Part shown: positions 1,120-15,294 of the stretch, piece by piece
How the letters are laid out: every line of letters starts with the position of its first letter
Position numbering within the stretch: the stretch's first letter is position 1
IMG/VR virus record: IMGVR_UViG_2529292718_000014
Location: 1-15,294 of that record
Strand: one strand, 5' to 3'
DNA length: 15,294 nucleotides
From: a virus
Lineage: Duplodnaviria; Heunggongvirae; Uroviricota; Caudoviricetes
Made by a program: the position numbers and the translations under genes
Notes under the pieces: generated by a model
The model's database searches: none
Seen by the model: the letters and a program-made list of their open reading frames with translations, nothing else
Told to the model about the DNA's origin: nothing

Positions 1120-1366
1120 GAGTTAAAATCTCCTTCAGTGCATCATCATCGCCAGTATGAATTTCCGGCGCAATTCCCGTTTCACCAGGCCCAACAAATA
1201 CTGCTCGGCGATCTATCAGCCAACGCCCACGAATTTTTTGTGGTCTTGGAACGATGTATCCTAGTTTTCCGTATTTCACCAGGGTAGTGTTTGTTATTGG
1301 GAGACTGAACCGTTTTGGTTTCCACTCATCGAGCGTTATCAGGTATTGTTCGCTCATGGCTATCAC
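1088..1366 (-). CDS. xis: Excisionase-like small DNA-binding protein (92 aa; true start may be the Met at 1357)
   Basis: Small ORF immediately upstream of and overlapping int. N-terminal motif YLITLDEW resembles lambda Xis YLTLQEW (recollection). Position and size are typical of an excisionase. Confidence 0.75.
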   Translation of the reverse strand: MIAMSEQYLITLDEWKPKRFSLPITNTTLVKYGKLGYIVPRPQKIRGRWLIDRRAVFVGPGETGIAPEIHTGDDDALKEILTHVTEATKKQH

Positions 1367-1418
1367 TCCGGAACGCGCCAGTTGCAGAATACCAACGACA
1401 ACTGGCGACGGTTGAACA

Positions 1419-3383
1419 TTAAAAATCAGCCTGACTCGGGATCAGTTTTTGCCAGATAGCTGAAATGTATTTTGCCTGGTAACGAGCGTCATCAAGTGCA
1501 TTATGGCGCTCACCTTCGAATGGAATAGCCGTTCTGGCATCGAAGTCCAGGGCTTTTCCTAATTCAACGATTGTGCGTACATCGCGATCGTTGCAGTAGC
1601 GCCACGGGCAGGGGATCCCCTGTCGTTCGTATGAGCGGCGTAAAATCACGTTGTCGAAGTTGTCTCCATTTCCCCAGACCTGAACAAAAAATTCACCGGA
1701 GTTTTCGTCGATAAATTCCCGCAATTGCAGTAGTGCATCATCTAACGGGATTTCATCGGTCATAATGGCAGACTGCGCTTCACGTGATTGCTTCAGCCAC
1801 CATTTAATGACGTCACGATCAATGACTCCGCCAGCAGTATCCAGATCGATGGTCTTGCTAAATTCCGGTCCCATATCTCCGGTTTGTGGATCGAAAAATA
1901 TTGCGCCTATTGAGATAATCGGGGCATCGGGATTTTTTCCCATGGTTTCAAGGTCGATCATCAGATGAATCCCCGCTCTGCTGGTGGATGTGAGATTATG
2001 ATGACCGTTCGCCTTAATTAAGAGATCTGTCGCCTCGCCAGTTTCATTATCGCTGGCGTGGTCCTGAGCGCTGCCAGCATTCTCCTTGTGTGGATGTTCA
2101 GCGCCTTCCATTTCCTCCGAATCGTCTTCCTGAACTTCAACTTGGTTCTCGTCATCGAATGTTTCCTGGTATGTTGCGTCGCCCATCACCGCGCCACAAT
2201 CAGGGCAGTTGCCGCCACCGCTCTGACCGCAGACGGTGCAGACTTTTTCCGGTTCCTGTTGCGCTACTGGTTCGGATTGTTTCGTTTTTGGCTCTTTTCG
2301 TTGCACATTTGGGCTGTTTTGTTCCGCTTTCTGGTCGTTCTGTTCCGTTTCTTGCTGGTTCTGGTTCACAGAATCGCGGGTTTCAATCCCCTTCACCCAT
2401 TTCGGATCATTCGGATCGCTAATCCCTGCAACAAATTCACCACGTGATACTGCAAGCAGTTCATCGGCGTCAGGCTGGCTGATATTGGCTGCCTGCATAA
2501 TTTTGTTTACTTCGTCAGCGGTAACTTTTACCGGCTCTGGTTGTGCGGTCGTGTCAGATGCACCAGTATTTTGTTGTAAACCTGAGTATGTACCGTTTTT
2601 GCGGGCGAAATATTCTTCTTTCGTGATTTCAGTAGCCCCGGCAGCCAGCGCCTTATCCAGACCAGAAAGTTTGTTTGCGCGACCGTATTTTTCGCCATCC
2701 TTGTCGGTGAAGAGGAAGTAGAACGGCCCCTCACGTTCTACAGATGGTTCGACTTCCACTTTGCATTCGGTTTTTTCGTTGTCCGGAATTGCCGTTTCCA
2801 CTGCATCAGTTTCTGGTACTGGCGACGAGAGAGTATCAGTTGCGCTCTGATTTGTTCCTTCATCTTCAAACACGCCCTTTGTAGTCAGGTATTCAGTAAT
2901 GTATTTGTTCAGTGCCACAGGGTCTTTGTGAATGTCGATCGGACGTTCACGGACAAGGCCAAAAATAGTCTGGCGGTCGTAGCGAAGGGCATCAGGCTGT
3001 TTGCGCATTGATGCCGAGATACGCTTCCAGTCTTCGCGGTCGTTGTCGATAACTTCATTTTTTGCCCAGCGATGGATGCTGCCGTCAATGTTTCCGGCAT
3101 CCACATCACCAGGCCAGAGAGCGTAGGCCAGTTCGTCATCCAGTGTTTTCCATGTCTGCTTGTATTCGCGATGAATGGCAGCAATGACCGGGTTGATATT
3201 TTCCTGCTGAGTTTTCAGTGTGCTGTCGGTTGACTCTGGCGCGGGCGAGATCAACAGCAGACGTGTATTTTCCGGTTTCCTTGCGTTCACCTTCGCGACG
3301 TTTTTTCCAGATGCGCATCTCTGCCTGAATTTCGGGCCATTTAGCTCCAGGCTTACATTTATGCTTAACCCACCCGATGGCAT
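1419..3383 (-). CDS. DEDDh-type 3'-5' exonuclease domain protein with Cys-rich zinc-ribbon-like motif (654-aa ORF; probably the C-terminal part of a larger disrupted gene, reminiscent of DLP12 exoD)
   Basis: C-terminal region has DnaQ-like motifs: MIDLETMG (Exo I D-x-E), a later acidic motif, and HNALDDARYQ (Exo III H-x4-D). CTVCGQSGGGNCPDCG suggests a zinc ribbon. The N-terminal 248 nt overlap another protein-like frame (3136-3654), implying a frameshift. The resemblance to exoD is from memory and its position next to xis, not a search. Confidence 0.72.
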   Translation of the reverse strand: MPSGGLSINVSLELNGPKFRQRCASGKNVAKVNARKPENTRLLLISPAPESTDSTLKTQQENINPVIAAIHREYKQTWKTLDDELAYALWPGDVDAGNIDGSIHRWAKNEVIDNDREDWKRISASMRKQPDALRYDRQTIFGLVRERPIDIHKDPVALNKYITEYLTTKGVFEDEGTNQSATDTLSSPVPETDAVETAIPDNEKTECKVEVEPSVEREGPFYFLFTDKDGEKYGRANKLSGLDKALAAGATEITKEEYFARKNGTYSGLQQNTGASDTTAQPEPVKVTADEVNKIMQAANISQPDADELLAVSRGEFVAGISDPNDPKWVKGIETRDSVNQNQQETEQNDQKAEQNSPNVQRKEPKTKQSEPVAQQEPEKVCTVCGQSGGGNCPDCGAVMGDATYQETFDDENQVEVQEDDSEEMEGAEHPHKENAGSAQDHASDNETGEATDLLIKANGHHNLTSTSRAGIHLMIDLETMGKNPDAPIISIGAIFFDPQTGDMGPEFSKTIDLDTAGGVIDRDVIKWWLKQSREAQSAIMTDEIPLDDALLQLREFIDENSGEFFVQVWGNGDNFDNVILRRSYERQGIPCPWRYCNDRDVRTIVELGKALDFDARTAIPFEGERHNALDDARYQAKYISAIWQKLIPSQADF

Positions 3384-3895
3384 GCAGCTTAAGCTCCGGA
3401 TACATAGCGTTAACTTCTGGCATTTTCATCAACGCTTCAACGATATGGCCGTCGAATGTTGCCATGTCTTCCTGCAACAATTCCTGTGCGCTAATCACCA
3501 TATCAACAGTGATGTTTTCACATGTGTCGAACTTAACCATGACAGCGTTCTGTACTTCAGGGGCTAGGTTGTCAAAAGTGACGTTCATCGGATCGGATTC
3601 AGTCTCGACCGGGACAAAGGAAGCAGACGCCTCATCCCAGCGGTTTTCCTGCATATATTCAGCATCCCAGGAATCGAGGGCAGGGCGGGGTATACCGGGT
3701 TTATCCTCGCAAACAAGAAATTTATAAGCGCAGTCCTGAGCAGCCGGATAATGTTCCAGGAATTGCCAGTGAAATTTTGCGCGGGCGCGACGTTCATCAC
3801 CGGCTTCAATGGCAGTGGCTACAGTGACGGCACCTTCTTCCTTTATTGCCTGTTCGTCCGGAATGGCGGCGCAAATAAAGACTGATCTTACCCAG
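3136..3895 (-). pseudogene. Upstream protein-like reading frame of the exonuclease locus, lacking a start codon for its first ~80 codons; likely a disrupted 5' portion of the same gene
   Basis: The frame of the 172-aa ORF (3136-3654) stays open and protein-like upstream to a TAG near 3895 (…AIKEEGAVTVATAIEAGDERRARAKFHWQFLEHYPAAQDCAYKFLVCEDKPG…), with no ATG/GTG/TTG before the Met at 3654. It overlaps the 654-aa ORF by 248 nt in another frame. A T6/A6 run lies at 3301-3306. Confidence 0.45.
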
Positions 3896-3986
3896 CAATA
3901 GTGGACACGCGGCTAAGTGAGTAAACTCTCAGTCAGAGGTGACTCACATGACAAGAATGAAAGCGGATGTTTATTACGGAACTGTT

Positions 3987-4178
3987 TTAAAGACCTGCCG
4001 GGATTTCGTTATTATCCTGGTGAATAACTTTATCGACCGGGTAACAGTTACCGGGAATTTTCTGTTCGGTTGCTGCAGTCATACATTCCTGCATTGTCCT
4101 GTGAACACTGACTGCAATATCAACTGACTCTCCGGAAACAAGATAAACTGTCAGAACAAGCGCAAATGCTGAATTCAT
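3987..4178 (-). CDS. Small hypothetical protein (63 aa) with N-terminal signal-peptide-like or transmembrane segment
   Basis: MNSAFALVLTVYLVSGESV… has a hydrophobic N-terminus followed by a polar domain with two Cys. Its ATG overlaps the stop of the upstream ORF in an ATGA arrangement, suggesting translational coupling. The ORF track's longer 81-aa start is less likely. Confidence 0.45.
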   Translation of the reverse strand: MNSAFALVLTVYLVSGESVDIAVSVHRTMQECMTAATEQKIPGNCYPVDKVIHQDNNEIPAGL

Positions 4179-4363
4179 TGTGCACATTCTTTTGGCATCA
4201 GACGTAAACGAGCCAGCATTGAAACAATGCATATTTTATTTAATAGCTCCCGTTCTTGTTTTCTCTTGTTAATGGCATCTTCAGTAAATACTGGGTTACT
4301 GATAGTGACACCAATTTCAAAACAACCTTCAGACGTATTAACGTTTGGTAATAACGTTTCCAT
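4175..4363 (-). CDS. Small hypothetical protein (62 aa from the METLL start; ORF track extends to 4468)
   Basis: Protein-like translation METLLPNVNTSEGCFEIGVTISNPVFTEDAINKRKQERELLNKICIVSMLARLRLMPKECAQ. The N-terminal extension in the ORF track runs through an inverted-repeat motif (4418-4440) and reads poorly. Coupled to the downstream small ORF. Confidence 0.4.
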   Translation of the reverse strand: METLLPNVNTSEGCFEIGVTISNPVFTEDAINKRKQERELLNKICIVSMLARLRLMPKECAQ

Positions 4364-4921
4364 TATCGCGTCCTCAACAATGAATTTTGTGATGCGGTGC
4401 CTAGTGCCTCCAGGTGACGTTAACCAGTTAACAATTAACGCCGGATACAGAGAACCCACCCATAACACTGTTTTTGGTTTTAACTGTTCCGCGTGCGCTT
4501 AGCCGCATTCACCGCATCACAAAATTCACTTTAAAAAGGGCGGCAGAGCAGTCACGGAGTAAAACTGATACCGCTAAACGCCACCAGAAAATTGATAACA
4601 GAGGGCGTTGCAGCGGGGTTGTCACTTAAGCGTATGGTCAACCTGACAACCCGGTGTCCTCAACGGGGAAGGAATAACCCCGCCATACTTACCGCCGCGC
4701 CATTTCGCGGATTGCCACAACCGGAAGCGCACGGTCGAATTAAATTTAACGACACCGTACAGACAGAATAACTTCGCCGTGCGCTTTCGCGTTATGTCCT
4801 GACTTTTCAGGGATATATCCTTCCAGTAAACTGCCAGTGCCGGATGCTCACCCGTGTCCGGCGCACGCACTCCACCTGACCCGTGGAGAACTCCTTAATT
4901 ACCAACCCTCAGGAGGGTGAA

Positions 4922-5143
4922 ATGACTAGTAAAAATGTAAATATCCAGTTTAACCACGATGTTTCTCCTGCTGGACTTGCGGATGAGCTCACTGCTATAA
5001 AAACGGCAATTATGCTACTTGCTGCTAAGTTGCCTGCGTCATCAAAGCCAGCGGAAATTTGTGACTCATTGCGTAAGATGAATTCAACAAAATGCAATGA
5101 GATGGCATCACTTATTGAAAGTGCAATTGATTTTAATGATTAA
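4922..5143 (+). CDS. Hypothetical small protein (73 aa)
   Basis: ATG at 4922 preceded by AGGAGG at 4911-4916; the upstream extension in the ORF track is unlikely. It is the only plus-strand ORF in a leftward block, and its 3' end overlaps the convergent ORF 5133-5507 by 11 nt. Confidence 0.5.
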   Translation: MTSKNVNIQFNHDVSPAGLADELTAIKTAIMLLAAKLPASSKPAEICDSLRKMNSTKCNEMASLIESAIDFND

Positions 5144-5507
5144 TCGAAATTTCATGGCTAACTGTAACACTCCCATCTGTGGCGGGATGGTTTAAATCGC
5201 TGGGATTAATGCCGCACTCAGTAAAATGGTTCTTAAGGGGTTCTATCCGAATCCCTTTCTTTTTCATTAACAAGCCAAACCCCTTATCAATGATATCCAT
5301 TAATTCCAGGAGGTATTTTTCATGTAAATCCTGGTTATCAGAGAGCTGCTTCTCTTCGTACAGACCGATAAAGGCACGACGCACGTTACCGGATATAGTA
5401 TCGATGGTTTCTTTTTCTACGGTACTCAGGTCAAGAGTCGCCAGTTGGGAACGAACTATATTCGCTGCCATTTCCTGGAATTGCATTGGTAAATCTTTAA
5501 ATTCCAT
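5133..5507 (-). CDS. Hypothetical protein (124 aa)
   Basis: Clean ORF with protein-like composition in the leftward early operon. No family recognised. Confidence 0.6.
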   Translation of the reverse strand: MEFKDLPMQFQEMAANIVRSQLATLDLSTVEKETIDTISGNVRRAFIGLYEEKQLSDNQDLHEKYLLELMDIIDKGFGLLMKKKGIRIEPLKNHFTECGINPSDLNHPATDGSVTVSHEISINH

Positions 5508-5529
5508 TATTAGCCTCGTTGGTTAGCTA

Positions 5530-5748
5530 TTAACGTGGGTATGTAATCATTCTGGCAATGCTTAATGCCGCTGCTTTTTCCAAATTGGTGATATCCTGCT
5601 CCAGAGCGGACAGATTTTCAGCCTGCTTAGCCTTGGCTTCATTGGCCCATTTCAGGTCCTGCGCGGCCTTAATTTTCTGGCGCATCCACTCATAAAGCTC
5701 ATCATCGGTATAGTCTGGCGCGATGATGACGGGTTCTCGTTTCTGCAT
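5530..5748 (-). CDS. Hypothetical small protein (72 aa), predicted helical/coiled-coil
   Basis: ORF in the leftward operon. The segment KIKAAQDLKWANEAKAKQAENLSALEQDITNLEKAA is heptad-like. Confidence 0.55.
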   Translation of the reverse strand: MQKREPVIIAPDYTDDELYEWMRQKIKAAQDLKWANEAKAKQAENLSALEQDITNLEKAAALSIARMITYPR

Positions 5749-5777
5749 ACTGATTCCTCGCGGTGCTGTTTCGCTTA

Positions 5778-5906
5778 TCAGCCGTTAGATTTTGCCGAGC
5801 TGGAAAGCGCCCGTTTAAATTCGCTGAAGCTGAGAGCTTCTTCGCCTTCGGCAAGGCCTTCGAAGTATTCTTCGTAAGCCTTTTCCATGATTGTGTCGAA
5901 ATCCAT
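5778..5906 (-). CDS. Small acidic ORF (42 aa), not in the supplied ORF track
   Basis: Found by manual translation: MDFDTIMEKAYEEYFEGLAEGEEALSFSEFKRALSSSAKSNG. The ATG lies 1 nt after the stop of the upstream 78-aa ORF, with GGTGAG just upstream. Confidence 0.3.
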   Translation of the reverse strand: MDFDTIMEKAYEEYFEGLAEGEEALSFSEFKRALSSSAKSNG

Positions 5907-5907
5907 A

Positions 5908-6144
5908 TCACTCACCTGAGTTTCTTTCCAGCCAGCGACGGGCACCATTTTCGGTTTTAAACGTTTTGCTTTTGGTATACGTCATCGCGGTGAACGTACC
6001 GTCCTGGTTGGGGAACACGCCACATACCAGAGATTCGCTGTTGCCAAGATCGATAGTATCCATGCTGACCTCATTTCCCCTTAACGCCGGGGTAGCGGAA
6101 CAAAAACCTGCTGCATAGTTATTAAAGTTGAACCCTGCCGTCAT
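5908..6144 (-). CDS. Hypothetical protein (78 aa; alternative start at internal MDTIDLG), first gene of the leftward early operon
   Basis: ORF immediately downstream (leftward) of the OL-like operator region. Not recognisably N-like: no arginine-rich N-terminus. Confidence 0.5.
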   Translation of the reverse strand: MTAGFNFNNYAAGFCSATPALRGNEVSMDTIDLGNSESLVCGVFPNQDGTFTAMTYTKSKTFKTENGARRWLERNSGE

Positions 6145-6240
6145 GTTCTTACGCCTCGGGCTGGCTACTTAACCCCTGACCACTGCTTGGTAACTCGAAG
6201 TATTGCCCTGCATTCTGTGGGGCGGGGTGGGTGGTAGGCA

Positions 6241-6290
6241 TATAATGTACTTTGCGTTCATTGTTGTAAAGTACTTTTAGTACATTTTGT
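6241..6290. promoter_or_regulatory. OL/pL-like operator-promoter region with ATGTACT / AGTACT / AGTACAT repeats
   Basis: ATGTACT at 6245-6251, palindromic AGTACT at 6270-6275, and inverted copy AGTACAT at 6279-6285. Located between the repressor gene end and the leftward early genes. The same heptamer recurs in the cI-cro intergenic region. Confidence 0.45.
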
Positions 6291-6360
6291 GTGTAAAAAA
6301 ATGAGATGGGATAAAGTGAAGCACAAACCCGGAGGAAGGCGCTACCGGATTTATGCTGGT

Positions 6361-6780
6361 TTAAGAGGCTTTTTGTTTTTTCTTTCGTGCTAACTCTTCG
6401 TAAATTGCATTGTACTTCTGTTTTTTCTCTTCAAGAGTTTTTAAAAGTTCATCTGTCTCACTGTCAGGGAGCTCGTCCAGAAGGTCAATGATGATTTTTT
6501 GTCTTGGATTTAACTCCTGATAGAAACGTACCTGTCCACTTTCTTCTGTATCCTCTCCCAAAAGATAGGTTGGTGTTGTTCCTATTAGTGTTGCTAATTC
6601 CCTTAATTTCTCCCGGCGAGGAATTGTTTCGCCATTAAACCATTTGCTAACCGCTTTTGGTGTTAATTTCATTCGACGGGCAATTTCTGCCTGCCTTCCA
6701 TGTTGTTCATAACCAGCGTTTTCACAGGCTAGCGCAAGCCTACTGGCGAACTCTTTACGCGCTTTATCTTCATGAACCAT
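6361..6780 (-). CDS. Prophage repressor, XRE-family HTH (cI-like), 139 aa, without a recognisable S24/LexA-type autocleavage domain
   Basis: N-terminal HTH-like segment (…QAEIARRMKLTPKAVSKWFNGETIPRREKLRELATLIGTTPTYLLG…) with a charged helical C-terminus. Divergent from the Cro-like gene, with shared operator repeats between them. No Ala-Gly/Ser…Lys peptidase motifs seen. Confidence 0.82.
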   Translation of the reverse strand: MVHEDKARKEFASRLALACENAGYEQHGRQAEIARRMKLTPKAVSKWFNGETIPRREKLRELATLIGTTPTYLLGEDTEESGQVRFYQELNPRQKIIIDLLDELPDSETDELLKTLEEKKQKYNAIYEELARKKKQKAS

Positions 6781-6859
6781 AAGTTCAATGATATTCGCTC
6801 TTGAATGTACTGTCAGTTCTGTTATGGCATGTACTCAAAGTTCACATTGTGAGGGTGAT
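6781..6859. promoter_or_regulatory. OR-like divergent promoter/operator region (pRM/pR analogue)
   Basis: Intergenic between the divergent repressor and Cro-like genes. Two direct ATGTACT copies at 6805-6811 and 6829-6835. GAGGGTG Shine-Dalgarno precedes the cro-like ATG at 6860. Confidence 0.45.
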
Positions 6860-7114
6860 ATGAACCAGAAAACACTTGAAGATGTAATCAAAACTGTTCG
6901 CGTTGCTGTTGTGGCCGACGTTTGTGGTGTCAGCCAAAGAGCAATCTATAAATGGATGGATAACGGAAAATTGCCTCGCACAGAATATACCGGCGAAACA
7001 AATTACGCTGAAAAAATCGCTCTTGCATCAAACGGATTATTTTCTGCCGATGCAATTTTAACTATTGGCAGGAATAAAACTACTACGAAAAAGCTGATGG
7101 GAGTTGATTCATGA
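6860..7114 (+). CDS. Cro-like HTH regulator (84 aa from the ATG at 6860)
   Basis: Segment VADVCGVSQRAIYKWMDNGKLP is HTH-like. It is the first rightward gene, divergent from the repressor. The ORF-track start at 6788 would sit inside the operator region. Confidence 0.7.
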   Translation: MNQKTLEDVIKTVRVAVVADVCGVSQRAIYKWMDNGKLPRTEYTGETNYAEKIALASNGLFSADAILTIGRNKTTTKKLMGVDS

Positions 7115-7536
7115 AAATCAAGCATGAACACATCCGCATGGCGATGAATGCCTGGGCGCATCCGGACGGCGAAAAAGTACCGGCTGCGAAAATTACCAAA
7201 GCGTATTTCGAGCTGGGAATGACGTTCCCGGAACTGTATGACGACAGCCATCCGGAAGCCCTGGCTCGCAATACTCAGAAAATTTTCCGCTGGGTGGAGA
7301 AAGACACCCCTGATGCGGTTAAAAAAATTCAGGCGTTGTTACCAGCTATCGAAAAAGCAATGCCACCTCTGCTGGTGGCCCGAATGCGCAGTCATAGCTC
7401 AGCGTATTTTCGGGAACTAGTGGAGACGCGGGAACGACTGGTGAGAGACGCTGATGATTTTGTCGCAGTGGCGATCGCTGGTTTCAACCAGATGAATCGT
7501 GGTGGCCCTGCAGGAAATATTGTGGCTGTGCATTGA
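7111..7536 (+). CDS. CII/YdaT-like early regulatory protein (141 aa)
   Basis: Start overlaps the Cro-like stop (ATGA-type coupling). Position immediately after cro matches cII/YdaT-type genes of lambdoid and Rac-like prophages. Family assignment is by recollection only. Confidence 0.55.
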   Translation: MKIKHEHIRMAMNAWAHPDGEKVPAAKITKAYFELGMTFPELYDDSHPEALARNTQKIFRWVEKDTPDAVKKIQALLPAIEKAMPPLLVARMRSHSSAYFRELVETRERLVRDADDFVAVAIAGFNQMNRGGPAGNIVAVH

Positions 7537-7607
7537 CTCGCAATATTCATACCGGATCACTTCCGGCAATTTGTGAGTAAAAAGATTCGGTATCAAAAGA
7601 GGTGAGT

Positions 7608-8678
7608 ATGGCTAACGCCTGGCTCAGATTATGGCATGACATGCCAAATGACCCTAAGTGGCGAACAATTGCCAGGGTGTCAGGGCAGCCAATTGCAACA
7701 GTGATGGCAGTGTATATCCACCTCCTGGTGAGCGCGTCACGAAATGTCACGCGAGGTCACATTGATGTCACGACAGAAGATTTGGCAAGTGCGCTCGACG
7801 TGACAGAAGAGGTAATTGATTCAATTTTGCAGACGATGCAGGGGCGGGTACTTGATGGTGATTTAATCACTGGATGGGAAAAACGCCAGGTGCTGAAAGA
7901 GGACAACGGCAATATTTCGCAAACCGCAAAATCTCCGGCAGAGCGCAAGAGGGCGCAGCGAGAGAGGGAAAGAAAGCGGGAACAAAATGGCGATTGTCAC
8001 GGCGAGTCACGAAATGTCACGCACATGTCACGACGAGTCACGACAGATAAAGATACAGATAAAGATACAGATCAAGAAGATCAAAACACTATGGTCCATG
8101 GCGTAAAAAACGCCACGAACCAGGCAGGGGATGTTCAGACCGTCACTCCTGGCCAGCCCGCAGGCACGACACCGGAAGCCGATTCAGCGTATGCGCTGAA
8201 AGCCGATTCGGGCGCTGTGCAGCAGGTGATGACCGCAAGGCAGGAGCAATCACACCAACTTCAGCAGCCTGAAGCCGATTCCGCCATTCAGCGGGAAGCC
8301 GATCGGGTAGTCCCGGAAAACACCGGGCAGCCTGTGGGACGAGTGGATTATCCTGATGTGTTCGAACAGGTCTGGCGGGAATACCCGTTGCGTGCCGGGG
8401 CAAACCCGAAGAAATCCGCTTTCAGTGCCTGGAAGGCCAGATTACGCGAGGGGGTGCCACCAGAGGCCATGCTGGATGGCGTGAGGCGTTACGCAAGATA
8501 CTTGGCGGCTACCGGGAAAACGGGAACGGAATTTGTTCAGCGAGCGACGACGTTTTTTGGACCGGACCGGAATTTTGAGAACCCCTGGTTGCTCCCGGTA
8601 AGCGGCACGAACAACCAGCGTTGTGTGAATCATATTTCTGAACCGGATAACGAAATTCCGCCGGGCTTCAGGGGGTAA
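7608..8678 (+). CDS. Replication initiator / replisome organiser (lambda O-like), 356 aa, containing the iteron origin
   Basis: AGAGGTGA Shine-Dalgarno before the ATG at 7608. The gene body contains two arrays of GTCACG repeats at 10-11 bp spacing and an AT-rich tract, as lambda ori sits inside gene O. The encoded protein repeats SRNVT…VTT accordingly. Confidence 0.65.
   Translation: MANAWLRLWHDMPNDPKWRTIARVSGQPIATVMAVYIHLLVSASRNVTRGHIDVTTEDLASALDVTEEVIDSILQTMQGRVLDGDLITGWEKRQVLKEDNGNISQTAKSPAERKRAQRERERKREQNGDCHGESRNVTHMSRRVTTDKDTDKDTDQEDQNTMVHGVKNATNQAGDVQTVTPGQPAGTTPEADSAYALKADSGAVQQVMTARQEQSHQLQQPEADSAIQREADRVVPENTGQPVGRVDYPDVFEQVWREYPLRAGANPKKSAFSAWKARLREGVPPEAMLDGVRRYARYLAATGKTGTEFVQRATTFFGPDRNFENPWLLPVSGTNNQRCVNHISEPDNEIPPGFRG
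7736..7772 (+). repeat. Iteron array 1: four GTCAC(G/A) repeats at 10-11 bp spacing
   Basis: GTCACG at 7736, 7746 and 7767, and GTCACA at 7756. An inverted CGTGAC copy lies at 7799-7804. Confidence 0.55.
7996..8085 (+). repeat. Iteron array 2 (five GTCACG repeats) plus adjacent AT-rich tandem repeat; probable replication origin core
   Basis: GTCACG at 7996, 8006, 8016, 8027 and 8037 (spacing 10, 10, 11, 10). Followed by ATAAAGATACAG x2 and AT-rich sequence to about 8085. A 17-bp block GTCACGAAATGTCACGC is shared with array 1. Confidence 0.6.
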
Positions 8679-8718
8679 GTGTTAATTTCTGGTCATGAGG
8701 TAATTTTCAGGAGGGCTT

Positions 8719-9174
8719 GTGGCAAAAGTTTTTACACAAGAAGAGCGGGAAAAAATTAAAGGGCAGGTTGTTGAACTCGTACGCCAGAGTGGGCGCGAGA
8801 CGTTACGACAACTGGAAACTAAAACTGGGGCAACAAGATATCTGATGAGCGTTCTGGCCAGAGAGCTGGTTGCCAGTGGCGATGTATACAACTCTGGTTA
8901 CGGGTTATTCCCGTCTGAACAGGCGCGTAAGGACTGGCAAAATGCCCGTAAAAAGCTCTCAAGGGCAAAGCTGAAGAAACCATCTGCGGTTGATCCGGAC
9001 CTTATCTGGTCATTACCTGACGGAGAAATACGTCGCTACGACAGGCGTCAGAACATAATCTGTCGCGAGTGCCGGAAGAGCGAAGCTATGCAGCGTGTAC
9101 TGGCATTTTACCAGAATGGTTTTCGAGAGACATTCGGTGAACAGGTTGTGCATGAGGGAAATCATGGCGCTTAG
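8719..9174 (+). CDS. Hypothetical protein (151 aa, GTG start)
   Basis: AGGAGGG Shine-Dalgarno before the GTG at 8719. Protein-like composition, CxxC near the C-terminus. Sits where a helicase loader would be in lambda but shows no recognisable similarity to one; may be truncated. Confidence 0.5.
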   Translation: MAKVFTQEEREKIKGQVVELVRQSGRETLRQLETKTGATRYLMSVLARELVASGDVYNSGYGLFPSEQARKDWQNARKKLSRAKLKKPSAVDPDLIWSLPDGEIRRYDRRQNIICRECRKSEAMQRVLAFYQNGFRETFGEQVVHEGNHGA

Positions 9175-9189
9175 GCAATTGTGTAGACG

Positions 9190-9480
9190 CGTTGACGGCC
9201 GAAAGCATAGGAGGGTTGATTGATCGTTCTAGTTATGCTGTCAGAGCGAAAGCGCAGGAACTGGGTATCAATAGGATGTTAAGAGGGGGGGTTATAACCA
9301 ATCAAAAAAACATCCGCAAAGCGATATTGAGCTAGTGCGGAAGCTTCATCAGTGTGGAGTTCCCCGCCGTGATATCGCTGTAAAACGCGAAATGTCCTTG
9401 GGCATGATTAATCAGTACGTTTATTTCGACAGGAGAGCGCATGAAGTTTGACATCTAGACAACTGGGGGAGCGCTGAAAA
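9190..9480 (+). pseudogene. Decayed coding remnants (HTH-like peptide fragments in two frames) with a G7 homopolymer
   Basis: Short protein-like stretches interrupted by stops: …SSYAVRAKAQELGINRMLRGG… and …VRKLHQCGVPRRDIAVKREMSLGMINQYVYFDRR…. G7 run at 9285-9291. No intact ORF of 60 aa or more. Confidence 0.3.
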
Positions 9481-9599
9481 CGTTCTTAATTGATGTTGGA
9501 TTCGCTTTACATACTGAACTGTTTGGCTGAAAGACACGGTAGTATCACCAATCAAGGTGCTTTTGATAAACGCTTGTGTGTTTGTTTTTTAATCCATTG

Positions 9600-9628
9600 T
9601 TGACAACTAGGTTAGTTTTCCATATCAT
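9600..9628 (+). promoter_or_regulatory. Near-consensus sigma70 promoter for the ParA-like gene
   Basis: -35 TTGACA at 9600-9605, 17-nt spacer, -10 TATCAT at 9623-9628. The ATG at 9659 follows about 30 nt downstream, with GGTGG ahead of it. Confidence 0.55.
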
Positions 9629-9658
9629 CAATAAAAGTGTAAAACTAATGGTGGCGAT

Positions 9659-10705
9659 ATGACTAGTGAATCAAATGTTAATGCTCTGATAGAGCGTCAA
9701 TTCGAAGTTGCTGACGGTAATGTAAGAAGTCTTAATTTGCCGAAATATGATAAATATACAGTATGTAATTTACGGGGAGGCATTGGTAAGACATCTTTAA
9801 CTTTTAATCTGTCATATTTGGCGGATAACGCATTAATCGTGGATACGTGCCCGCAAGGAAATTTATCATATTTTTTTGACAATAATTATGCATCTTCGTC
9901 TAGCACAACTGCAAATGACCTCTTAATGCCTTATTTTGTTCCAGGGCTTGGATTTGCAACGCGTGCTGCAAAGCTAGTATCATCAACTAATGCTTGGTTT
10001 GCGGGCAAGAATAACTATTTTATTCAATCTGATAGTCAACTTTATCTTCTACCTACGCAAATGGCGAATGCTCTGGCTCAAGCCAGAACAATTTCTGGGG
10101 CTACTCAGCAGGTTGTTATTGATACAATTCTTTTTTCTCTGAAGAAAGAAATAGCCAGAGAAATGGTTGAAACTGGTACTACAAAAGCGTTAATTGATAC
10201 ATCACCTTTTTTCTCTGGAGCGACGCATTTATCTTGGCATGCAACAGATGCTTTAATAGTTCCAGTGAGGACAGATCAGCAATCGATTAATTCATTAAGA
10301 TTACTTATTGATACTCTGACTAAACCAACATCAGAATTTAGAAAGATAATGCCGTCTGATGGCCATACACCAAAAATTCAGATGGTGGTTATTACCCATT
10401 GCGGATGGTCAACAGTGGCAGGAGCAAGGAATAAACCAAATCAACAGACAAAAATGTACATCGAAGCTGTAAGAGAGGTAATTCGACAAAATATTAGTAA
10501 TTTTACAACAGATGATCCTAATAATCACATTGTGATTCTTGATGATTTTCTGGGTAGTGGCAGAATGTCAAGTGCTAAGTCTAAACCATTAGAGTTGTTA
10601 AATCCAGGAGATGCAATGACTGTGAATAGAGTTAGGACATCCGTGAATTTATCTGTTAACAAAATAAAAAATGAATTAAAGTTCATTCACAACTCCATAT
10701 GGTAA
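9659..10705 (+). CDS. Orphan ParA/MinD-family P-loop ATPase (348 aa) with variant deviant Walker A
   Basis: NLRGGIGKTS matches the deviant Walker A KGGxGK[ST], with Arg in place of the signature Lys. DTCPQGNLS matches the ParA D-x-D-P-Q-G-N motif. LIDTSP is a Walker B-like motif and ALIVPVRTDQQSINSLRLL a ParA-like segment. C-terminal extension of about 100 aa. The region is visibly AT-rich by eye. No ParB-like gene is adjacent. Confidence 0.8.
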   Translation: MTSESNVNALIERQFEVADGNVRSLNLPKYDKYTVCNLRGGIGKTSLTFNLSYLADNALIVDTCPQGNLSYFFDNNYASSSSTTANDLLMPYFVPGLGFATRAAKLVSSTNAWFAGKNNYFIQSDSQLYLLPTQMANALAQARTISGATQQVVIDTILFSLKKEIAREMVETGTTKALIDTSPFFSGATHLSWHATDALIVPVRTDQQSINSLRLLIDTLTKPTSEFRKIMPSDGHTPKIQMVVITHCGWSTVAGARNKPNQQTKMYIEAVREVIRQNISNFTTDDPNNHIVILDDFLGSGRMSSAKSKPLELLNPGDAMTVNRVRTSVNLSVNKIKNELKFIHNSIW

Positions 10706-10862
10706 ATGACATTTTATTTGAATAATCTGGATTGATAATTATTGTTACATTAATTGTTATTAATTCTAAATAATCCTATCGTTCTTCAGGATGAGATAAT
10801 TTATATTTATTTGTGTTGTGATTTTTTGAATTTATTTAGGTTTATGAACTGTTTTAGATGAA

Positions 10863-10982
10863 ATGAATCATGAATACGAAATTGTTGCGGTACTGATAAC
10901 GAGGAAAGACCTCTGCGAGGTACGAATCCGAACCGGCCAGACGGAGGTCGCTGTCTTCACAGCTTACGAACCTGAGGAGTAA
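10863..10982 (+). other. GC-rich element: candidate 39-aa small ORF or 5' part of a structured small RNA
   Basis: ATG at 10863 to TAA at 10980-10982 encodes MNHEYEIVAVLITRKDLCEVRIRTGQTEVAVFTAYEPEE with a weak Shine-Dalgarno. The segment is much GC-richer than its AT-rich flanks. It is followed by a perfect 8-bp hairpin with GAAA loop (10991-11010) and the terminator at 11050-11072. Confidence 0.3.
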
Positions 10983-11049
10983 GAGACCAGGCGAGGGAGA
11001 AATCCCTCGCCACCTCTGATGTGTCAGGCATCCTCAACGCACCCGCACT

Positions 11050-11072
11050 TAACCCGCTTCGGCGGGTTTTTT
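11050..11072 (+). terminator. Rho-independent terminator (copy A of an identical 23-bp element)
   Basis: TAACCCGCTTCGGCGGGTTTTTT: 6-bp GC stem ACCCGC/GCGGGT, UUCG loop, T6 tract. An identical 23-mer occurs at 12885-12907. Confidence 0.7.
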
Positions 11073-11073
11073 A

Positions 11074-11120
11074 TTGGTTGACAAAATTATGAATATGCAC
11101 CAATATCTTGGTTGACAAAA
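11074..11120 (+). promoter_or_regulatory. Two direct TTGGTTGACAAAA repeats (34 bp apart) upstream of the cassette; candidate promoter -35 elements and/or operator
   Basis: 13-bp perfect repeats at 11074-11086 and 11108-11120, each containing TTGACA. The -10 matches at 17-bp spacing are weak (CAATAT, GGATTA), so an operator role is also plausible. Confidence 0.4.
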
Positions 11121-11155
11121 GTCGTTTTTTGCACGGATTAGGCGGAGAAGTGTCT

Positions 11156-11749
11156 ATGCAGAACCATCCATTCCCTTGGGAGTTCTTTCCTGAGTTAACA
11201 GAGGTGCGTTTAACCATTATAGCTGAGGAGTTGCTCAGGATACAGGATATTACTCATGAGTTATTGTCATCGCCCTATGATGATAATTACACTCGTGGTG
11301 GTTGTACATTTGGGCGTCAGCGGCAGGCGTTGCTACAAATGTGCGTACGAAAGACATATGACTGGTTAAGACTACTTAATCCTGGCATGGATCTTACGTT
11401 TTCAATTGGGAATGTCCCTATTCGTTTCTTTACTGATGACGCAGATAACCCCAAGAAACGCGGTTTTTTCAAAAGAAATGATGCTGATCGACTCTTTGAG
11501 TCAGAGGAGACTACTCCAACTATGCATCGCTTTGTGGTTGAAAAGCCTGAATTTGAAGGCGAGGGTGGTAGAGTCATTTTTAATGGCTATAACGTGTTTG
11601 GTGAGATCGTGTCAACTTGGACATATGGTGCGGACCGTGTTGTTATGCTGAACTCTGTCGATGATGTACCTCCAGCACCGGTACCTATCGAACTAGAACC
11701 TATCAGTGCGTCTAAGACTGAGAAGGAAAAGAAACAAAATAGCAAATAG
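11156..11749 (+). CDS. Hypothetical protein (197 aa), first gene of the accessory cassette
   Basis: ATG at 11156 with GGAG 8 nt upstream; the TTG start in the ORF track lies inside the upstream repeat and is unlikely. Protein-like composition with an acidic, Pro-rich C-terminal tail. No recognisable catalytic motif or family. Confidence 0.7.
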   Translation: MQNHPFPWEFFPELTEVRLTIIAEELLRIQDITHELLSSPYDDNYTRGGCTFGRQRQALLQMCVRKTYDWLRLLNPGMDLTFSIGNVPIRFFTDDADNPKKRGFFKRNDADRLFESEETTPTMHRFVVEKPEFEGEGGRVIFNGYNVFGEIVSTWTYGADRVVMLNSVDDVPPAPVPIELEPISASKTEKEKKQNSK

Positions 11750-11759
11750 TGGGTGAAAT

Positions 11760-12881
11760 GTGTTTAACGGTACTAATTTAAGACTTGCTCGTCTGTATCA
11801 CGAGCTATCTCTGGAGCAGGTTGCTGAGAAGGTTGAAAAAACACGCCAGTATGTACAGCGACTGGAGTCTGGTTCAGCTACTCCATCCCCAGAGCTTATA
11901 AATAAATTAGCCGAGGTTTTGCGCGTGAAGCCCGCCTTTTTCGAAGGGCAGGAACATTCTCCTGTTAATGAAGAGATTGTACATTTTCGTAAACGCGCCT
12001 CGACAAGGATGTCAACGAAGCTATCAACACTCGCTAAGGCTGAGTTTTATCGTCGTTTTATTGATGTATTTGAAGATAACCTTAATTTGTCACCTGTTCG
12101 ATTTCCTGAATTTCGTGTCCATACACAAGAAGATATCGAGCGAGCGGCAGAAAAATGTCGTATTGAGTGGGGCTTAGGCTTTGGCCCAATTGAAAATATG
12201 ACTCGCCTTGCCGAGAAACTTGGGGCGTTTGTTACTTCATTTGACTCCGTTTCGGATGAAGTAGATGCACTGTCTGTTCCTCTACGAAGGCCTTTTATTG
12301 TTCGAAATACAGCTAAAAATTCACCTTGTAGGCAACGCTTTGATATTGCTCATGAGGTTGCCCATTTGATTCTTCATGAAGGAATTTCTACTGGGGATAG
12401 ATTAACTGAATCCCAGGCAAACCGTTTTGCCTCTGCTCTGTTGCTTCCCAGAACGTCGATGGCGAAATATTTTCCAAGACCTGTGGGGGGGAGGATAAAT
12501 TGGCAGGGACTAAGCCAATTTAAGTTGACATGGAAAGTAAGTAAGGCTGCCATTGTTTACAGGGCTCATCAATTAGGACTTTTGACTGATGAGCAGTACA
12601 GAACTGCATTTATGGGGTTGAAACGGAAAGGGGAAGCTATTGATGAAAAAGAAGATTATCTAATCCCTCATGAGCGTCCTGAGTTATTCCGTCGGGCTTT
12701 ATCGTTTTTATTTGAAGAGTTAGGATACGACCCACAGCGTATAGCTGATGAAATGGATATAGAAGTGGACATTTTTTATGAGTTAGTAGGAGATGATCTT
12801 CCTGCGGTTCATGAACTGCCAGGAAGTGGTGATGTTGTTTCACTACAATCTTACCGAACTCTTAGAGGCAAAATTCACTAG
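11760..12881 (+). CDS. XRE-family HTH fused to ImmA/IrrE-type (COG2856, M78-like) zinc metallopeptidase domain, 373 aa
   Basis: N-terminal HTH (LRLARLYHELSLEQVAEKVEKTRQYVQRLESG). Central HEXXH motif in RQRFDIAHEVAHLILHEG, followed by a downstream acidic region typical of ImmA/IrrE proteins. Starts 10 nt after the 197-aa gene, so likely co-transcribed. Followed by terminator copy B. Confidence 0.85.
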   Translation: MFNGTNLRLARLYHELSLEQVAEKVEKTRQYVQRLESGSATPSPELINKLAEVLRVKPAFFEGQEHSPVNEEIVHFRKRASTRMSTKLSTLAKAEFYRRFIDVFEDNLNLSPVRFPEFRVHTQEDIERAAEKCRIEWGLGFGPIENMTRLAEKLGAFVTSFDSVSDEVDALSVPLRRPFIVRNTAKNSPCRQRFDIAHEVAHLILHEGISTGDRLTESQANRFASALLLPRTSMAKYFPRPVGGRINWQGLSQFKLTWKVSKAAIVYRAHQLGLLTDEQYRTAFMGLKRKGEAIDEKEDYLIPHERPELFRRALSFLFEELGYDPQRIADEMDIEVDIFYELVGDDLPAVHELPGSGDVVSLQSYRTLRGKIH

Positions 12882-12884
12882 GCA

Positions 12885-12907
12885 TAACCCGCTTCGGCGG
12901 GTTTTTT
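12885..12907 (+). terminator. Rho-independent terminator (copy B, identical 23-mer)
   Basis: TAACCCGCTTCGGCGGGTTTTTT, identical to 11050-11072. Begins 4 nt after the stop of the HTH-peptidase gene. Confidence 0.7.
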
Positions 12908-12982
12908 GTTTTACGTATTCTGGTTTACAATCTACAGGCCAGCCTGAACAACTGGCACCTGCTGCGCCAGCAGAGAAAACCG

Positions 12983-13255
12983 ATGGCGCACGATACCAAA
13001 CATCACAATTCTGATACTGCCCTTGCCAGCTGGTGCGGGCGGCGTTTTCATGCATTCAAATCTGACTGGTACCAGCATGCCCCATGCACTGAAGAACAGG
13101 CCGAATGGCTGATTCAGAACTACCGCAGGCGTGGGTACGACTTTCAGAAAGACCTCGGCCCTGACTTCCGACACTGGATAATTTCTGTCAGGCTCCCTTA
13201 TTCCGAACGCCCACCGCGTCCGTCCCGCACATTCCAGCAACGCATCTGGAGGTAA
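12983..13255 (+). CDS. Hypothetical nin-region protein (90 aa)
   Basis: ORF whose stop (13253-13255) lies 1 nt before the GTG of the next gene, suggesting coupling. The C-terminus is Pro/Arg-rich and reads poorly, so the call is uncertain. Confidence 0.45.
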   Translation: MAHDTKHHNSDTALASWCGRRFHAFKSDWYQHAPCTEEQAEWLIQNYRRRGYDFQKDLGPDFRHWIISVRLPYSERPPRPSRTFQQRIWR

Positions 13256-13256
13256 C

Positions 13257-13691
13257 GTGCGGGTATTACTTCGACCTGTTCTGGTACCGGAACTCGGGCT
13301 GGTTGTCGTTAAGCCAGGTCGTGAATCCATGCAGGTATTCCATAACGGCAGGGTACTGGTGGAGCCGGAACCGAAAAGCATGCGTAATCTGCCGTCCGGG
13401 GTCGTTCCTGCCGTTCGCCAGCCGCTGGCGGAGGACAAAACATTGCTGCCGTTTTTCAGTAACGCACGGGTAATTCGTGCTGCTGGTGGTGCTGGTGCAT
13501 TGTCTGACTGGCTGTTGCGCCATATTAAATCCTGCCAGTGGCCACACGGCGATTATCATCACAGCGAAACCGTTATTCACCGATATGGTACCGGCGCAAT
13601 GGTGTTGTGCTGGCACTGCGACAACCAGCTGCGTGACCAGACATCCGAATCACTCGAGCAACTGCTCATCAAAACCTGTCAGCATGGATGA
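13257..13691 (+). CDS. Hypothetical nin-region protein with Cys/His cluster (144 aa; GTG start, or internal Met)
   Basis: GGAGG 5 nt upstream of the GTG at 13257. Motif C-x-W-P-H-G-D-Y-H-H…C-W-H-C-D suggests metal binding. Its stop overlaps the next ATG (ATGA). Confidence 0.55.
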   Translation: MRVLLRPVLVPELGLVVVKPGRESMQVFHNGRVLVEPEPKSMRNLPSGVVPAVRQPLAEDKTLLPFFSNARVIRAAGGAGALSDWLLRHIKSCQWPHGDYHHSETVIHRYGTGAMVLCWHCDNQLRDQTSESLEQLLIKTCQHG

Positions 13692-14305
13692 TTGACGTCA
13701 TCGGTCACGCAATAAGCGGTACGCAGGAGCGTGAATTATCTCTGGCTGAATTATCCTGGTGGGCGGTCCGCAATCAGCTGGCGGACGCGCTACCGGAAGC
13801 GGTATTACGTCGCTCGCTGGGATTACCAGCGGAAAAAATCTGCTCGGTGTACCGCGAAAGCGACATCGTACCGGGAGAGCAGACCGCCACCAGCATATTG
13901 AAACAGCGCACAAAAAATCTTGCACCGTTGCCTCACGCCCACCAGCAACAAAACCCATCACAGGAAAAGACGGTGGTAAGCATCACCGTTGATCCAGAGT
14001 CTCCGGAATCTTTCATGAAGCTGCCTAAACGTCACCGGTGGGTTAAGGAGAAATACACACGCTGGGTTAAGACACAGCCGTGTGCTTGCTGCGGTATGCC
14101 AGCCGACGATCCGCATCATCTGATTGGTCACGGGCAGGGCGGAATGGGAACCAAAGCACATGATCTCTTTGTTTTGCCTTTGTGCAGAAAGCATCACGAC
14201 GAGTTGCATACGGATACCGTGGCATTTGAAGAGAAGTATGGCTCCCAACTGGAGCTGATTTTTCGATTTATCGATCGCGCGCTGGCAATTGGTGTGCTGG
14301 CCTAA
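13688..14305 (+). CDS. nin-region protein with HNH/zinc-finger-like motif (205 aa), possibly NinG/Rap-like
   Basis: Motif [18 protein letters not shown]…[10 protein letters not shown] has a CxxC…HH…C…HH pattern. Position just upstream of Q matches the lambdoid nin region. Family name is by recollection. Confidence 0.65.
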
Positions 14306-14322
14306 TTTTGTGGAGTAAGTTG

Positions 14323-14700
14323 ATGCGTGATATTCAGATGGTTCTTGAGCGTTGGGGGGCATGGGCGGCTAATAATCATGAAGATGTGACCTGGTCGTCC
14401 ATTGCCGCCGGTTTTAAGGGATTAATTCCTTCAAAAGTAAGATCTCGTCCGCAATGCTGTGACGATGACGCGATGATCATTTGTGAATGTATGGCTCGCC
14501 TGAAAAAAAACAACAGCGATTTACATGATTTATTGGTGGACTATTATGTCGGCGGCATGACTTTTATGGCGCTTGCACATAAGCATGGGCGATCTGATTG
14601 TTGGGTTGGCAGGATGCTCCAGAAAGCTGAGGGCGTAGTGGAGGGCATGCTGATGGTGTTGGATCTCCGATTGGAGATGGATGCTGATTGTTCGAAATAA
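14323..14700 (+). CDS. Late-gene antiterminator Q (phage 82 / DLP12 QuuD-like type), 125 aa from the ATG at 14323
   Basis: N-terminus [24 protein letters not shown]… and the Cys cluster [17 protein letters not shown] match my recollection of QuuD-family Q proteins. GGAG 9 nt upstream. Followed by a tR'-like terminator. Confidence 0.8.
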
Positions 14701-14798
14701 TTAAAGGAAAAGTTGCTGTCTGATTTTCATTAGTCTAACATTTTAAATGTTGGAATCGCAACGTAGTTATTATCATATAACAGCTTGTTTCCTGATTT

Positions 14799-14828
14799 AG
14801 CCAGCCTCCCCAAAGGCTGGTTTTTTTC
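14799..14828 (+). terminator. Rho-independent terminator downstream of Q (tR'-like)
   Basis: Stem CCAGCC/GGCTGG (14801-14806 and 14815-14820), 8-nt loop, T7 tract at 14821-14827. Expected late promoter/qut region lies between the Q stop and this hairpin. Confidence 0.65.
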
Positions 14829-14990
14829 TAATAAGTATCATTTCGGGTGGGGATTTTATTGTTTAACCCATAATAGTTCATTGACATTGAATCCCAACTT
14901 TTGAGCGGTACGCACATAGTCTGCTTTTACATTATCTGGAATAGTTTGGGTCCTTGCCAGAATCCATAGGTATTCTCTGTTCGGACCACT

Positions 14991-15294
14991 GGTGATGCTG
15001 CCAACTTACTGATTTAGTGTATGATGGTGTTTTTGAGGTGCTCCAGTGGCTTCTGTTTCTATCAGCTGTCCCTCCTGTTCAGCTACTGACGGGGTGGTGC
15101 GTAACGGCAAAAGCACCGCCGGACATCAGCGCTATCTCTGCTCTCACTGCCGTAAAACATGGCAACTGCAGTTCACTTACACCGCTTCTCAACCCGGTAC
15201 GCACCAGAAAATCATTGATATGGCCATGAATGGCGTTGGATGCCGGGCAACCGCCCGCATTATGGGCGTTGGCCTCAACACGATTTTCCGCCAT
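14991..15294 (+). mobile_element. IS1 insertion sequence, left end (partial; continues beyond the window)
   Basis: Terminal inverted repeat GGTGATGCTGCCAACTTACTGATTTAGTGTATGATGGTG begins at 14991 and matches the canonical IS1 end, followed by insA. Confidence 0.95.
15046..15294 (+). CDS. insA: IS1 InsA (partial, 3' end outside the window)
   Basis: GTG start at 15046. Translation [83 protein letters not shown] matches IS1 InsA as I recall it. Confidence 0.95.

Follow-up and report, generated by a model that had tools for sequence, protein, structure and literature searches.

The closest characterised system to the locus described here is the origin oriL of the Bacillus subtilis phage SPP1, together with its initiator G38P. 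In SPP1 the origin lies within gene 38, where repeats bound by G38P stand beside an AT-rich unwinding element; in vitro, a segment of 356 bp suffices (PMC5737612, PMC6316719). The origin of phage lambda similarly lies in gene O and consists of iterons followed by an AT-rich tract, an arrangement that is also found in Stx phages (PMC7466680). Here we report a computational analysis of a comparable locus in a 15,294-nucleotide stretch of DNA from a virus of the Caudoviricetes (IMG/VR record IMGVR_UViG_2529292718_000014, positions 1 to 15,294; the whole stretch is hereafter called the window), where a gene for a 356-residue protein contains two arrays of the short repeat GTCACR and an adjoining AT-rich tract. 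We put the probability at roughly 80% that positions 7736-8122 form a bipartite iteron-type replication origin inside the gene of its own initiator, a reading made from sequence. On the best reading of its layout, array 2 and the AT tract would be the core of the origin and array 1 a conserved auxiliary site. The design is already known; this version of the origin is uncharacterised.

The likeness to SPP1 lies in an origin placed in the initiator's own gene, with direct repeats and an adjoining AT-rich element that are conserved in the homologues studied here, and it extends to the initiator, G38P being without an AAA+ domain (PMC5737612, PMC6316719). The present locus differs in belonging to a temperate lambdoid phage of a proteobacterial host, in carrying two arrays in one gene whereas SPP1 has one oriL and a distant oriR, and in having no genes for a G39P/G40P-type loader or helicase in the window, while a DnaT-like tail is present on the initiator. 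Lambda is alike in the position of the gene in the early-right operon, in an origin situated centrally in the initiator gene, iterons first and then an AT tract, and in that this stretch codes for a flexible linker joining the N- and C-terminal domains. In lambda ori an inverted repeat follows the AT-rich tract (compare 8092-8122 here), and the iterons are sites of ~19 bp with internal symmetry; variants with six iterons are known from Stx phages. A preliminary description of this DNA had called the gene O-like and seen in the locus a mirror of lambda ori. The position and role of the gene bear this out, as do iterons beside an AT tract in mid-gene. However, the initiator has no sequence homology to O as judged by Pfam, its cores are asymmetric, 6-7 bp long and repeated with a period of 10-11 bp rather than being 19-bp sites, the second array falls within the coding region of the putative DNA-binding domain, and there is no P gene.

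Iteron plasmids with Rep_3-type initiators also carry multiple direct repeats that are bound by a dedicated initiator beside an AT-rich region, and two separated repeat clusters that cooperate are known from P4 (ori and crr) and from R6K. Unlike these, the present protein matches no Rep family in Pfam, and its iterons are much shorter and lie within coding sequence. What distinguishes the locus from these systems is a combination of short iterons spaced by one helical turn, a second conserved array in the coding region of the putative DNA-binding domain, three specificity classes that appear to co-vary with the protein, and the DnaT-like tail.

Repeat arrays and AT-rich tract in the window

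The features on which the argument depends are as follows.

7608 to 8678, + strand: replication-initiator gene, 356 amino acids (open reading frame and translation); holds the arrays and the AT tract
7736 to 7772, + strand: array 1, four iterons (GTCACG, GTCACG, GTCACA, GTCACG)
7799 to 7804, - strand: inverted single iteron, GTCACG on the - strand, 27 bp past array 1
7935 to 7985, + strand: basic helix, residues 110-126 (AERKRAQRERERKREQN), from AlphaFold2 models; no overlap with iterons
7996 to 8042, + strand: array 2, five GTCACG iterons; codes for the start of the disordered linker
8043 to 8091, + strand: AT-rich tract, proposed DNA-unwinding element; (ACAGATAAAGAT) x2.9, then GATC-containing AT-rich DNA
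8092 to 8122, no strand assigned: imperfect inverted repeat with a 13-pair stem and a 5-nt loop, directly 3' of the AT tract
8604 to 8675, + strand: DnaT-like C-terminal 24 residues, matching the C-terminus of the host primosomal protein DnaT (SEPDNEIPPGFRG)

On the + strand GTCACR starts at 7736, 7746, 7756 and 7767 in array 1 (gaps of 10, 10 and 11 bp) and at 7996, 8006, 8016, 8027 and 8037 in array 2 (gaps of 10, 10, 11 and 10 bp). The preliminary description had listed nine GTCAC(G/A) copies in two arrays at this spacing; all are found where it placed them, and the inverted copy at 7799-7804, which was absent from its list, makes a tenth. The 17-nt block it saw in both arrays, GTCACGAAATGTCACGC, is confirmed at 7736 and 8006. 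Counted over the whole window, GTCACR is unremarkable in number (19 against 13.4 +/- 3.5 expected); its clustering is unusual, reaching 5 copies per 50 nt where not one of 300 first-order Markov simulations went above 3, and GTCAC and TCACG are the most clustered 5-mers of the window. Matching peptide repeats had also been noted, and both SRNVTRGHIDVTT (residues 44-56) and SRNVTHMSRRVTT (residues 134-146) are in the translation of 7608-8678. The nine cores begin at coding-sequence offsets 128, 138, 148, 159, 388, 398, 408, 419 and 429, covering all three reading frames, which argues that the peptide repeats are a by-product of the DNA repeats and not their cause.

Array 2 abuts directly on the AT-rich tract, where the tandem repeat of the preliminary description is recovered by Tandem Repeats Finder as 2.9 copies of ACAGATAAAGAT at 8043-8077. 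By nearest-neighbour calculation the least stable 50-bp duplex in the gene starts at 8042, with a free energy of -57.2 kcal/mol against a window mean of -69.0 kcal/mol (standard deviation 5.1). The GC content of the tract, 0.33, is the minimum of the gene, and its top strand is purine-rich with a strong skew of A over T. Two GATC (Dam) sites fall within it, at 8070-8073 and 8079-8082, and both K-12 ydaU and several relatives from enterobacteria have AAAGATCTAAAA 3' of their GATAAA repeats. DnaA boxes are in no excess across the window and give no exact pattern match within the origin region. A promoter and terminator scan of the window stayed at background level, its only yield being the inverted repeat at 8092-8122.

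Conservation of the layout in homologues

Scanning one genome per species gave 55 loci whose genes code for this N-terminal domain (hereafter N-domain) in Gamma-, Beta- and Alphaproteobacteria, and three additional loci were obtained by exact protein look-up, L059-L061 being among the set. In nearly all of them a short repeat core is the commonest hexamer of the gene's first 750 nt, and the positions match those of the window, array 1 lying at nt ~128-165 of the coding sequence and array 2 at ~360-450. Array 2 has 3-6 copies in nearly all homologues and is always directly 5' of the AT tract. An inverted copy often stands ~30 nt past array 1, as GTGAC at offset ~192 in most loci of the GTCAC class and as CGTTC near offset 160 in several of the GAACG class. 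Right after array 2 come tandem hexamers of the GATAAA/GATACA type, encoding DKDKD or DTDTD; these (GATAMA)n runs span hosts of 33-69% GC, loci of 60-69% GC included, and the maximum AT content per 30-nt window past array 2 is 0.60-0.90 in 45/45 loci. In L059-L061 the inverted repeat seen at 8092-8122 is conserved as DNA. Across the family an inverted repeat past the AT tract, often GC-rich, is enriched (12 of 45 loci at a background rank of <=0.1); as a universal feature it is only partly supported, 7 loci being without any.

The cores fall into three classes, GTCACG(C), GTAACG(C) and cGAACGC, which have the 3' ACG(C) in common and vary at the first three positions. The conserved core is 6-7 bp long and asymmetric, the 3-4 bp between cores are variable, and in the GTCAC class 129 of 144 gaps give a core spacing of 10-11 bp. 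Array 1 is kept in 43 of the 45 loci that have array 2, and in every one of these 43 two-array loci the dominant core is identical between the arrays (25 GTCAC, 5 GTAAC and 13 GAACG). A rough neighbour-joining tree of the N-domain, made with the array-encoded columns masked, requires at least 8 class switches. The arrays have therefore changed together repeatedly. Recent gene conversion between them was considered and found weak support: shared blocks average 12.6 nt within a locus and 10.3 nt between loci (p = 0.017), and the 17-nt block recurs in unrelated loci. The preliminary description had also asked whether array 1 is a duplication; judged by the relatives it is not a recent one but an element of the layout that is both ancient and conserved.

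Selection on the DNA itself is seen at synonymous sites. Among 19 loci of the GTCAC class, with fetched regions of 34-69% GC from hosts that include Entomomonas, Bordetella and Pseudothauera, the mean conservation of third codon positions is 0.95 inside the cores and 0.51 outside them (Mann-Whitney p = 3.5e-7). It reaches 1.00 at V47 (GTC), T48 (ACG), G50 (GGT), H51 (CAC), V54 (GTC) and T55 (ACG), whereas at the invariant residues P13, T20, P28, V32 and G89, which lie outside the cores, third positions score only 0.32-0.37. Near-invariant synonymous sites of this kind point to selection on the DNA beyond the coding constraint. Comparison thus shows the arrays and the AT tract, as judged from their conservation, to be DNA elements under selection that belong to this initiator family.

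The same comparison shows both arrays to have, by all appearances, one specificity that tracks a residue of the initiator. In the alignment the classes are told apart at two sets of columns. One comprises the loop residues that array 1 encodes and that its DNA dictates; the other is a handful of positions in helix 110-126, outside any iteron. In this helix the motif ER-x-x-x-[Q/Y/W]-R-E has, at residue 117, Q in 24/25 GTCAC loci and Y or F in 6/7 GTAAC loci; among the 14 GAACG loci at least 11 have W. Locus L040 combines Q117 with GTCAC, yet the rest of its domain groups with the GAACG loci. This fits an initiator that would read the cores itself, with helix 110-126 taking part, and makes the helix and its residue 117 a candidate specificity element. 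Taken together, the conservation of position in ~50 homologues, the constraint at the DNA level and the covariation strongly support the proposal of the preliminary description that this is probably a prophage origin within an initiator gene.

Some variation on the layout should also be recorded. L046 and L055 have longer genes (396 and 434 residues), with a segment rich in CTACGT/TACGTAG inserted at coding-sequence nt ~330-540 instead of the usual array 2. Close alleles vary in repeat number: array 1 of L005 (E. albertii) has six iterons, P0003 has the same loop insertion as L005 in the protein alignment, and P0002 has one TDKD unit fewer. In P0019 array 2, the AT tract and the inverted repeat are for the most part missing, which looks like an origin deletion in a decaying prophage.

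Alignment of the protein to viral contigs returned only near-identical E. coli copies. As this is not a diverse test set, a protein-independent scan of IMG/VR for a DNA pattern, three GAACGC at 10-bp spacing, was used instead. It returned 120 viral contigs. The arrays lie within a gene with the same N-domain in 72-76 of the 120, at offsets of 120-160 or 320-400, which are the two canonical positions; in 17/120 the array is in a second type of initiator, and in the remaining contigs it lies in other open reading frames or in non-coding DNA. The second initiator type (e.g. L146, L152, L153, L165) has the N-terminus …FNAYHSYL…LNDAExGxLF… and carries its GAACGC arrays in the linker, ~266 nt into the reading frame, often followed by GATAAA repeats encoding DKDKDK. 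Three contigs (L158 at ~2814-2870, L226, and L184 at ~7254-7339) have 7-8 GAACGC copies at 10-bp spacing; arrays of this type stand at the very start of reading frames that lack the N-domain, or outside long reading frames, and may be origins of another kind.

The Rac prophage has been reported to have an active origin, oriJ (PMC3945230). The window resembles Rac in prophage type and gene order, with ydaS/ydaT-like genes upstream. We considered YdaU of K-12 Rac as a homologue of the initiator and rejected it, BLASTP matching only a 19-residue C-terminal tail and the low-complexity linker. Its N-terminal domain is the non-homologous DUF1376, its repeat core is TGTTCAA-like, and ydaU is followed by the DnaC-like gene ydaV. 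Even so, K-12 ydaU (L003, 4472-4660) is laid out in the manner seen here, with 4-6 direct repeats of the TGTTCAA type followed by an identical GATACAGATAAAGAT cassette and, after it, a C7...G5 palindrome. This region may be oriJ, the map position of which within Rac was not found in the literature searched, and the AT cassette appears to be common to different initiator families.

The initiator protein and explanations of the arrays

AlphaFold2 divides the protein into an N-domain (residues 1-127), a disordered linker (128-244), a C-terminal helical domain (245-330) and the DnaT-like tail, although the full-length model is of low confidence, with a mean predicted local distance difference test score (pLDDT) of 50.8. 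The N-domain, for which DNA binding is a candidate role, is modelled at moderate confidence with helices at 4-14, 16-25, 29-48, 56-63 and 67-77 and the basic helix at 110-126. Array 1 encodes the loop of residues 44-55 between helices 29-48 and 56-63, and in the models the loop at ~46-55 has low pLDDT. The protein matches PHROG 3729, 'replication initiation protein', at E 7e-257, and PHROGs families named 'replisome organizer' at E 7e-6 and 1e-4. NCBI names its relatives 'phage replisome organizer', while in identical genomes the RefSeq name is 'hypothetical protein'. No Pfam family scores above its cut-off; at E up to 10 the full protein retrieves only HTH_Crp_2, PhyR_sigma2 and Phage_rep_org_N. 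The last of these (PF09681 / TIGR01714) aligns residues 5-123 with profile positions 1-119 of 121, at sub-threshold scores of 16.5 bits (cut-off 23.3) and 15.5 bits (cut-off 49.8) and E 0.009-0.015. From this sub-threshold match the N-domain may be a distant relative of the replisome organizers of SPP1 G38P type.

The tail (…NHISEPDNEIPPGFRG) is near-identical to the C-terminus of DnaT, corresponding to positions 156-179 of 179 of the NCBIfam DnaT model, and it was the only part of the initiator to find a match in a sequence search of the PDB (6aep, 2ru8, 9zbt). K-12 YdaU, which is otherwise unrelated, carries the same DnaT-like tail. It may be a copied docking peptide; no function for the C-terminal tail of DnaT was found in the preprimosome paper.

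We envisage that the N-domain of the 356-residue protein would bind the 6-7 bp cores and that, with cores spaced by one helical turn, its protomers would be aligned on one face of the DNA. Array 2, with five sites, would nucleate an oligomer adjoining the (GATAMA)n tract, where the DNA would melt. Array 1, with four sites and one inverted site ~225 bp upstream, would most likely act by cooperative binding or by looping of the intervening DNA; alternatively, it might limit read-through of the initiator gene. The C-terminal domain and the DnaT-like tail would then recruit the host DnaB-DnaC, as we infer from the lack of a loader gene in the window and in phage Tritos, a close relative, and from the near-identity of the tail to the C-terminus of DnaT. 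That a gene can also host an origin would be explained by what the arrays encode, namely a surface loop and a disordered linker, where nearly any sequence ought to be tolerated.

Several points weigh against this account. A Foldseek comparison of the N-domain model with the PDB gave nothing significant (best E 1.6, with weak winged-helix-like matches), and since the models are also of moderate confidence, a DNA-binding fold, including a winged helix, is not established. The literature searched holds no binding or replication experiment for this family. L040 and L053 retain array 2 and the AT tract and are without array 1, which is therefore not indispensable, and ~7 loci are without clear arrays. 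The loci behind the association with residue 117 are phylogenetically related and not independent, and because the helix is encoded only ~10-60 nt 5' of array 2, the covariation of residue 117 with array 2 could reflect physical linkage, as recombination would transfer both at once. Finally, the recruiting role given to the tail is inference only, and the specific role given to array 1 is guesswork.

The alternative that survives best agrees that the arrays are binding sites of the initiator and assigns array 1, and possibly both, mainly to control rather than to firing. Array 1 might, for example, serve autoregulation as a roadblock to transcription through the initiator gene, and titration or a pairing of origins like that of plasmid iterons would be further possibilities. 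This alternative overlaps the origin reading and departs from it over the role of array 1 only. In its favour, array 1 is placed ~130 nt inside the gene, at a distance of ~225 bp from the AT tract, and has an inverted copy for a neighbour, and the two loci L040 and L053 show that array 1 is separable from the core. Retention of array 1 in nearly all array-2 loci, with a core that is always identical, suits a structural part of the origin equally well, and we consider a mainly controlling role unlikely, though one to be kept in mind.

A further idea concerns what array 1 encodes. If it specified some of the surface with which the protein reads iterons, the same DNA would be both the site and the code for its reader, and the class switches would each be a coupled change of site and reader. 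Following an invariant Arg-Gly, GTCAC loci have His, cGAACG loci have Arg and one GTAAC locus has Asn, and there is some support from L040, where His-51 is encoded by GGACAC, which is not an iteron, and array 2 is nevertheless GTCAC. As a specificity reader, however, residue 51 did not prove robust: among the GTAAC loci it is N, E, R or V, His also occurs in L048 and L049, which have no GTCAC arrays, and in most loci the encoding iteron itself dictates the residue. We regard the idea as doubtful in the extreme.

We attach still less weight to the conserved DNA being a recombination junction for the exchange of phage modules with no role in replication. It is true that the joint between the N-domain and any of several different C-terminal modules falls exactly on the (GATAMA)n tract, and the same GATACAGATAAAGAT cassette is found in the non-homologous K-12 ydaU and in the second IMG/VR initiator type. 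But a junction leaves unexplained the spacing of one helical turn, the matching cores in arrays 225 bp apart, the three core classes that co-vary with a protein residue and the invariant synonymous sites of array 1 well inside the N-domain, and mosaic joints at an origin are an expected by-product. Binding of the repeats by some other protein, be it a host factor, the YdaT/cII-like protein or the adjacent DUF977 protein, seems to us just as improbable. Genes for YdaT-like and DUF977 proteins are common neighbours in these prophages; the arrays, however, travel with the N-domain across three proteobacterial classes while the neighbours differ, the reverse scan locates them for the most part in genes of this family, a residue of the initiator varies with the core class, and in L059-L061 the arrays persist with a DnaC-like gene in place of DUF977. 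Least credible of all are repeats selected as peptides or arising from chance or recent duplication, suggested by the similar peptides SRNVT...VTT that occur twice and by the 17-nt block common to the arrays, since the copies occupy all three frames with synonymous sites fixed, array 2 encodes a disordered and poorly conserved linker, the clustering is above that in all 300 simulations, both arrays are present in distant homologues, and blocks of the 17-nt type recur in unrelated loci.

Prophage context, distribution and significance

By type the window is a Rac/Qin-like lambdoid prophage of E. coli, with genes in the order integrase, excisionase, RecE-like exonuclease, ydfD, dicB, ydfABC, cI-like repressor, cro-like, YdaT/cII-like, initiator, DUF977, ParA-family, hok remnant, ImmA, DUF968, RusA and Q, so that the initiator lies in the early-right operon after the cI-like, cro-like and YdaT/cII-like genes, with DUF977 and then the ParA-family gene directly 3' of it (8719-10705). 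No P-type, DnaC-like or G39P/G40P-type loader or helicase gene is present in the window, and none of P- or DnaC-like type is annotated beside the initiator in Tritos. Some relatives do have an IstB/DnaC-like gene directly 3' of the initiator (L059 3960-4706, L060 3972-4697, L061 3951-4694). Two other features of the window were noted in passing. The ParA-family ATPase gene (9659-10705) stands in the early region of an integrating prophage, beside the hok remnant, and may serve partition, defence or some other purpose, and a 24-nt tandem repeat (x2.0) at 6243-6290, between the divergent cI-like and cro-like genes, probably represents operator sites.

Seven phage records match a 1.4-kb query region at 96-99% identity. 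In ~10 complete E. coli genomes the identity is 100%, and at least 80% of the region is found in 1646 of 5426 such genomes; IMG/VR holds more than 580 relatives. Among the phages is Tritos, which was isolated as a plaque-forming phage of strain LF82, is lambda-like (PMC9928086) and shows 96.9% identity over the query. Its iteron cores are at matching positions, and one spacer base differs in the stretch printed.

The replication module is thus very common, yet no paper describing an origin for this initiator family was found in the literature searched, the library of which is incomplete. The comparison maps a putative core origin, made up of array 2, the AT tract and the inverted repeat, together with a conserved auxiliary array, and it offers iterons of three natural classes, for which residue 117 (Q, Y or W) is a candidate determinant of specificity. 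This would be a tractable system in which to follow the joint change of specificity in an initiator and its sites, and likewise the recruitment of a host helicase by a phage that has no loader of its own, possibly via a copied DnaT tail. It is also a clear case of strong DNA-level selection on synonymous sites in a coding region, a form of selection that gene-based annotation misses.

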